Source: Octopus vulgaris
Taxonomy: Eukaryota
DNA length: 64,000 bases
Direction of reading: 5' to 3'
NCBI GenBank assembly: GCA_951406725.2
Contig: OX597815.1
Location: 52,700,001-52,764,000, forward strand
A program made the position numbers and the translations under genes. The notes under the pieces are model-generated. The model saw only the letters and a list, made by a program, of their open reading frames with translations, ran no database searches and was not told the origin of the DNA. The stretch's first letter is position 1; the number at the start of each line of letters is the position of its first letter. Below, piece after piece: positions 40,410 through 43,590 of this stretch.

Positions 40410-43590
<3,181 letters not shown>

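Follow-up and report, generated by a model that had tools for sequence, protein, structure and literature searches.

A stop codon shared by both arms of an inverted Penelope-like insertion in Octopus vulgaris probably descends from one defective donor copy

Introduction

Penelope-like elements (PLEs) typically leave an adjacent inverted, 5'-truncated copy and a tail on one side only (PMC8557442), and in O. vulgaris 336 recently active Penelope-like insertions in 31 families have been recorded (PMC13282606). The Penelope elements of Adineta form head-to-head repeats, include stop-bearing copies and are mobilized in trans (PMC3846280). At the amber/W site of hepatitis delta virus (HDV), editing takes place within a defined structure, inosine is read as G during replication, and edited genomes are dead ends; known ADAR1 sites have a 5' neighbor other than G (PMC3185552). 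Restorative editing of G-to-A changes has been reported in coleoids, with a median level below 2.5% (PMC6881472). These accounts, and the comparisons that close this paper, draw on parts of the cited sources. The parts of PMC12458077 that we consulted discuss editing together with transposons and hold no case of an editing-gated stop, and no published editing-gated retrotransposon stop was found in the literature searched, which comprised titles and abstract openings, with subscription papers outside its scope.

Here we analyze an inverted pair of Penelope-like copies in a 64,000-nt window of the O. vulgaris genome (contig OX597815.1, positions 52,700,001 to 52,764,000; coordinates below are those of the window). 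An initial annotation of this DNA had pointed to an in-frame TAG at a probable tryptophan codon in both arms and had proposed it as a site that A-to-I editing might rescue.

Results

The pair consists of two head-to-head, 5'-truncated copies with reverse transcriptase (RT) and GIY-YIG sequences, whose arms of 2,646 nt mirror each other at 40410-43055 (+) and 40192-37544 (-). The right arm (40410..43055, + strand) starts at residue 227 of P0003, an 803-aa predicted protein of O. vulgaris that is 99% identical to the element ORF over 530 aa, and runs through RT, thumb, a short Cys linker, GIY-YIG and a 3' region with microsatellites to a pLTR-like end. The left copy (37544..40411, - strand) is the same element, extends about 217 nt further on its 5' side and starts at P0003 residue 154; even this longer arm is without about 153 N-terminal codons. 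Its additional 5' coding sequence makes up the 217-nt spacer (40193..40409, -), and at the head-to-head junction (40410..40411) 2 bases are compatible with both copies, a microhomology.

We compared the element with contigs from four sequencing runs, X1, X4, X2 and X6, none of them matched to the animal of the window; X2 and X6 are RNA by our guess only. The collinear order of the element, with 40193 (-) joined to 40410 (+), was present in contigs of all four runs, and no contig bridged the inverted junction at 40409/40410, an absence without weight given that the contigs come from other samples. One X4 contig has a loose end at 41460 that represents another copy, in which an inverted pLTR 3' end directly abuts an element whose truncation point is 41460; inverted junctions therefore recur in this Penelope-like family. 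A second palindrome, spacer-less and 95% self-complementary over about 260 nt, lies beside the left flank (37193-37450) and may represent a different repeat's 3' end in inverted form.

Both arms finish at the same base of the pLTR-like end. A 54-nt tail (43056..43109, +) follows at the right end only and is succeeded by a (TA)n run at 43110-43214; a (TA)n run adjoins the left end too, leaving the insertion (TA)n-flanked at both ends. The combination of 5' truncation, adjacent inverted copy and one-sided tail is present here as in EN+ PLEs. A direct pLTR pair or partial tandem is absent, neither copy having a 5' end and only inverted 3' ends being present; because the insertion is truncated, the missing direct pair is not a mark against the element type.

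The arms differ by 3 substitutions and 4 small indels (1, 2, 3 and 1 nt), and all 4 indels sit in homopolymer or dinucleotide runs. In element sense, each substitution has G in the right arm and A in the left (40863/39739, 40925/39677 and 43016/37583). The two frameshifts had been described as specific to one arm each, and we confirmed this: the left copy has one A fewer in an A-run (41786/38816-38817), and the right arm has CT absent after 41988.

RT and, in C-terminal position, a GIY-YIG endonuclease follow one another in one ORF that is collinear with P0003. Profile matches to Pfam RVT_1 (E 8e-4) and GIY-YIG (E 2.9e-4; 21.5 bits against a cut-off of 22.6) were both under the curated cut-offs. 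The left arm departs from P0003 at 6 aligned positions within residues 154-686, including one at the edge of the frameshift. The RT catalytic motif YVDD is encoded at 41235..41246 (+), and the Cys linker and GIY-YIG endonuclease extend over 41989..42375 (+) to a TGA stop; the linker, C-x4-C-x2-C at 41989-42020 followed by 7 aa and a further C, fits the CX2-5CxxC pattern of Neptune and Nematis. Within the pLTR-like end we found by eye a degenerate hammerhead-like core at 42889..42933 (+), CUGAUGCG, with a 6-bp stem II that folds and a GAAA, mirrored near 37666-37710 (-). No Rfam hammerhead match was obtained at E<=1, and Rfam otherwise gave only microRNA-type matches and one other chance match, all under gathering scores.

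From 168 candidate stretches, 2 related DNA loci were found, at 45-48% identity. Shorter and longer protein searches returned no near-identical octopus protein that ends at or begins after the TAG site; P0153, a distant 87-aa protein, ends at the TAG column and has Cys there. Several O. vulgaris gene models (P0111, P0175, P0158 and others) carry the 5' part of the element as a first exon fused to host genes, and these are probably prediction artefacts.

Other repeats occur in the window. Inverted repeats of 223 nt (89%) at 61129-62740 enclose a 242-aa transposase-like frame (61437-62162, -), an element that is Tc1/mariner-like by appearance. Repeated LINE-like fragments with (TTA)n ends lie at 22455-27479, 31391-31656 and 33096-34258, and this set includes a 513-aa RT-like frame (25485-27023, -) and an 8-copy tandem array of a 33-nt unit from a LINE-like coding segment. 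A degenerate interstitial (TTAGGG)n array occupies 48436-48591. A fragment at 10627-11061 (-), in which a Cys linker of greater length leads into the first part of a GIY-YIG-like motif, probably belongs to another Penelope-like family.

The in-frame TAG (41169..41171, +) takes the place of the first Trp of the conserved RT motif FMVWWD, 21 codons before YVDD. Its mirror in the left arm (39431..39433, -) reads CTA on the + strand, and the translation of each arm has ANLFMV-stop-WDRRL followed by YSRYVDD, exactly as had been reported. Since the stop lies upstream of YVDD, the catalytic motif, the thumb and the endonuclease are lost. The codon is indeed one for a conserved Trp. Among the matches listed (120 of 260; 9 not covering the column), W was found in 107 of 111 near-length homologues, with Y in 2, A in 1 and S in 1; W was also found in 27 of the 28 short matches that cover the column (32 matches) and in 3 of 4 long matches, the remaining one being unmatched by the motif search. 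Both related DNA loci have TGG at this codon, and P0003 reads VWWD, the Trp being W480. No match to a 23-nt pattern around the TAG was found in contigs from metagenomes, viruses or prokaryotes.

We determined how a stop could arise by G-to-A change in 529 codons of the element. Out of 333 G sites, 16 lead to a stop, all of them within 8 TGG codons, and half give TAG; a TAG at Trp is thus the default form of an ordinary G-to-A nonsense change. The presence of the TAG in both arms is one event, not two, and is no more than chance would lead one to expect, because near-identical arms share any lesion of their template. As a frame-breaker it is the only lesion common to the arms, as previously claimed; it is not the only departure from the family that they share. 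Both have a 6-nt in-frame tandem duplication (TQTQ; 41447..41458, +), absent from P0003 and from the dominant X1, X2 and X6 contigs, and both have A at 41702, where all four runs have G, and A at 41876. A composite of the arms had been thought otherwise open, but it falls short of the whole ORF, the left copy beginning only at residue 154 of P0003. With the first 153 or more codons missing, this locus is unrescuable by editing and could yield no RT even if edited.

The initial annotation had also entertained a family-wide stop. P0003, at 99% identity, has Trp there (W480), and the stop is not family-wide. Other copies are represented in the four runs. Of 56 differences between the runs and the window, 40 were listed individually; position 41170 is absent among them, and its state is read from tallies. 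Every listed difference is at least 31 letters from a contig end, and the unlisted ones likely fall near contig ends. The unlisted differences were one A>C, one A>G, two C>T and one G>A in X1, two A>G and two G>A in X4, one G>A only in X2 (16 tallied, 15 listed), and two A>G, one C>A, two G>A and five T>C in X6. An X1 contig (41160-41657) has one unlisted difference, which must fall near 41160-41190, and this contig probably has G at 41170, i.e. TGG. In X2, no A>G at 15% or above can be assigned to 41170, though a contig centered on 41159 covers the site. In X6, contig 41017-41251 spans the TAG site by about 80 letters, and a G there would be listed unless it was below 15%. If we have read the tally rules correctly, which is likely, these observations suggest that TAG is dominant in the X2 contigs and present in X6. 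The alternative that the TAG occurs at this locus alone, which the initial annotation would have taken to mean a private mutation, is therefore probably wrong, although the indication from X2 and X6 is an indirect one. It is somewhat likely that the TAG is carried by other, possibly transcribed copies, and the simplest picture may be a family in which a defective, TAG-bearing sub-lineage exists beside copies that code for Trp.

We examined 34 octopus gene models, of which 32 align to P0003. Only P0003 itself crosses the site, and 31 of the 32 leave the frame by residue 428. We take the aligned models to derive from the octopus annotation of a bioRxiv preprint. Repeat masking preceded gene prediction in that annotation, according to the parts of the preprint consulted (bioRxiv 10.1101/2023.05.16.540928). 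The early exit from the frame fits a common stop, and such masking would account for it too.

At 41876, G accounts for 100% in X1 and 99.8% in X4, so G is genomic there in other copies; by depth, A and G make up 73% and 27% in X2, and 60% and 40% in X6. Linkage is untidy, X2 carrying A41876 like the window yet differing from it at 41953 and 41702. At 40863 and 40925, the dominant X1 and X2 contigs have G and match the right arm; the left-arm A's are accordingly derived, and the idea that the A/G differences between the arms are edits fixed in the right arm is ruled out at these two positions. The third, 43016, lay outside the stretch compared with the run contigs. In element sense there are six A-for-G differences in all (41170, 41702 and 41876, and 39739, 39677 and 37583 in the left arm), their polarity being set against the run majority, P0003 or the other arm, and two of the six are in a TGG>TAG context. 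The numbers are small, and strand-biased deamination or chance is possible as the source of the excess.

The element is most structured in a predicted RNA region at 41157..41320 (+), made up of a hairpin and a window-dependent stem, with the TAG at its border. This region had z -3.4 against dinucleotide shuffles and -3.6 to -4.2 against synonymous nulls, and the lowest z among 41 sliding windows was -3.8. Most of the score comes from the hairpin at 41220-41291, which spans the YSRYVDD coding region, is mirrored in the left arm, excludes A41170, and alone has z -4.0 against synonymous recoding. A 16-bp stem (41157-41172 / 41304-41320) takes in A41170 in short windows only. The best partner of A41170 shifts with window and span (41100, 41215, 41306 or 41381) and is U, not C, where its identity is given, and the folding energy is the same with G at 41170 (-51.9 vs -52.1). 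By duplex score A41170 ranks 5th among the 51 adenosines in a UAG context, and its score is matched at 11% of the positions sampled. Comparable structure was not seen in the TGG relatives L001 and L002 (z -0.6 and +0.9). The 5' neighbor at the UAG site is U, and each arm holds 989 A and 61 UAG.

Discussion

We consider it likely that the TAG is a G-to-A nonsense mutation of a donor copy that was copied into both arms of one insertion mobilized in trans. That the stop predates the duplication had been suggested from the start, and it agrees with the 6-nt duplication, A41702 and A41876 that the arms also share. The window has A against G at 41702 and 41876, and the left arm has A against G at 40863 and 40925, the same direction as the proposed donor change. 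As to whether the stop arose as a donor mutation or as an error of reverse transcription, the apparent occurrence of TAG outside this locus seems not to be expected from a simple one-off RT error. The G-to-A change in TGG would have originated together with the 6-nt duplication, A41702 and A41876, either in a single donor or in a small sub-lineage. Donor RNA would then have been reverse-transcribed into a (TA)n target, and, inosine being copied as G, the TAG in both arms means that this template was unedited. Two cDNAs, or one cDNA and a fold-back copy of it, may have been joined head to head over the 2-nt microhomology, with the working enzyme presumably supplied in trans by tryptophan-coding copies. 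The three G-to-A changes and the four run-length indels would have arisen afterwards or stem from faulty assembly. Edited or not, the locus is dead. So read, it is an ordinary, dead inverted Penelope insertion with both arms from one defective template, and a small example of trans-mobilization.

Of the other readings, the one that fares best is compatible with a donor mutation. A read-through transcript of the pair might form a 2.6-kb duplex in which A41170 is edited incidentally among many other adenosines, leaving protein output unaffected. The arms are near-perfect complements with ample adenosines and UAG sites, and long dsRNA is promiscuously edited (PMC3185552). We nevertheless regard this as unlikely, as no transcript of the locus was seen and the dominant X2 and X6 contigs are without the 6-nt duplication and A41702.

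Very improbable, in our estimate, is a stop that gates the RT. The source lineage would have TAG in its genomic copies, and ADAR editing to UIG, or a near-cognate tRNA, would allow full-length RT to be made, TGG copies such as P0003 being progeny of edited RNA. A young octopus sub-lineage would thus be transcribed and spreading with an amber codon before its RT active site, a small edited or readthrough fraction giving active enzyme, and this form of the idea is just as improbable. Were it true, host ADAR would license a transposon, the opposite of its usual silencing role, in animals with heavy neural editing. The UAG has a non-G 5' neighbor, as do ADAR1 sites (PMC3185552), and a 16-bp stem can form there within an unusually structured region. 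However, the partner of A41170 moves with the window and is U rather than C, one sampled position in nine or so (11%) scores as well, the z-score stems mostly from a hairpin that does not include the site, the energy is indifferent to G, and L001 and L002 are unstructured. The TAG also seems, on indirect evidence, to be present in contigs of two RNA-like runs from different studies; yet the X2 contigs carry no A>G call at 15% or above, with the proviso that contigs drop rare variants. Position 41876, also in a UAG context, has G at 27% in X2 and 40% in X6, but G is genomic there in other copies, as X1 and X4 show. Coleoids do edit G-to-A changes restoratively, though with a median below 2.5% (PMC6881472), and the UGA/Sec codons of Naiad are a precedent for recoding in a PLE (PMC8557442). 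That 31 of the 32 gene models in the alignment end before the site, and that Tyr occupies the column in 2 of 111 homologues among the matches listed, would both be in keeping with a gated stop. Against this stand the genomic Trp of P0003 at 99% identity and the expectation that edited templates would seed autonomous TGG copies and so abolish the dependence; the edited genomes of HDV, by contrast, are dead ends. The dependence on editing that was initially raised as a speculation is not borne out: the X2 tallies have no A>G at 15% or above at 41170, the predicted pairing is A-U with an unstable partner, and the locus is 5'-truncated.

Long-read errors fall in homopolymer and dinucleotide runs, and all 4 inter-arm indels are found in such runs. 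A fold-back read or polishing could accordingly have made or homogenized the second arm, in which case the shared stop would be a single observation or an error. This, too, is very improbable: the mirror halts exactly at the element end with no host flank copied, the spacer consists of further sequence of the element, a tail follows on one side only, the junction has 2-nt microhomology, and in the X4 contig an inverted pLTR end adjoins 41460 of another copy. Even with genuine arms and a genuine TAG, the frameshifts could well be errors. Least probable of all is a stop that arose after insertion in one arm and reached the second through gene conversion or the repair of a hairpin. Long, near-perfect inverted arms with a short spacer are able to pair, but three substitutions that flank the site on both sides stay unshared, the shared 6-nt duplication, A41702 and A41876 are more simply a donor haplotype, and the TAG seems, indirectly, to occur in other samples.

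Taking the donor mutation as the best explanation, the locus can be set beside the systems described above, again as they appear in parts of the cited papers. It resembles EN+ PLEs of the Neptune and Nematis type (PMC8557442) in its single ORF with RT and GIY-YIG, its CX2-5CxxC linker and 5' truncation, and likewise in the inverted 5'-truncated copy beside it, the tail at one end only and the (TA)n target; the degenerate hammerhead-like core near the 3' end is a possible further likeness. It differs in that both copies are truncated, with no full-length unit or direct pLTR pair, and in a tail of 54 nt as against 30-40. In its short spacing the linker resembles the Nematis rows of Fig. S2 in that paper, a likeness of spacing and not an assignment to a clade, and the motif FMVWWD had 0 matches among the RTs in the parts of its supplement consulted. 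With the Penelope of Adineta vaga (PMC3846280) the octopus pair shares head-to-head inverted copies and the occurrence of in-frame stops, which many Adineta copies have; that species is also described as having a defective copy that is transcribed, and mobilization in trans, to which we liken the octopus case. The octopus junction has a 217-nt spacer and 2-nt microhomology, in place of the palindrome in Adineta vaga.

Like the HDV amber/W site (PMC3185552), the octopus codon is a UAG that A-to-I editing would turn into a Trp codon, with a non-G 5' neighbor and some predicted pairing. Unlike it, the site is without a predicted fixed structure or A-C mismatch, a difference that does not by itself exclude editing, as HDV type 3 uses A-U. 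The 16-bp stem of the short windows compares with the roughly 25 bp of pairing expected around the edited A of an amber/W-type switch. Genomic Trp copies exist in the octopus, and edited progeny would be autonomous and not dead ends; the short product would be a fragment of RT that lacks catalytic activity, with no evident second function. In the Naiad selenoprotein PLEs (PMC8557442), too, in-frame stops of the ORF coincide with conserved residues. In Naiad there are 3-4 UGA at conserved Cys, in the family consensus, with SECIS elements and an N-terminal EN, whereas the octopus element has one UAG at Trp that is not family-wide, and a C-terminal EN. Finally, the TAG is, as in the restorative, or harm-permitting, editing of coleoids (PMC6881472), a case of G-to-A change in a conserved position, open to reversal by editing; the sites reported there are missense sites in host genes, mostly edited at low levels, and the octopus TAG is a candidate by its sequence only.
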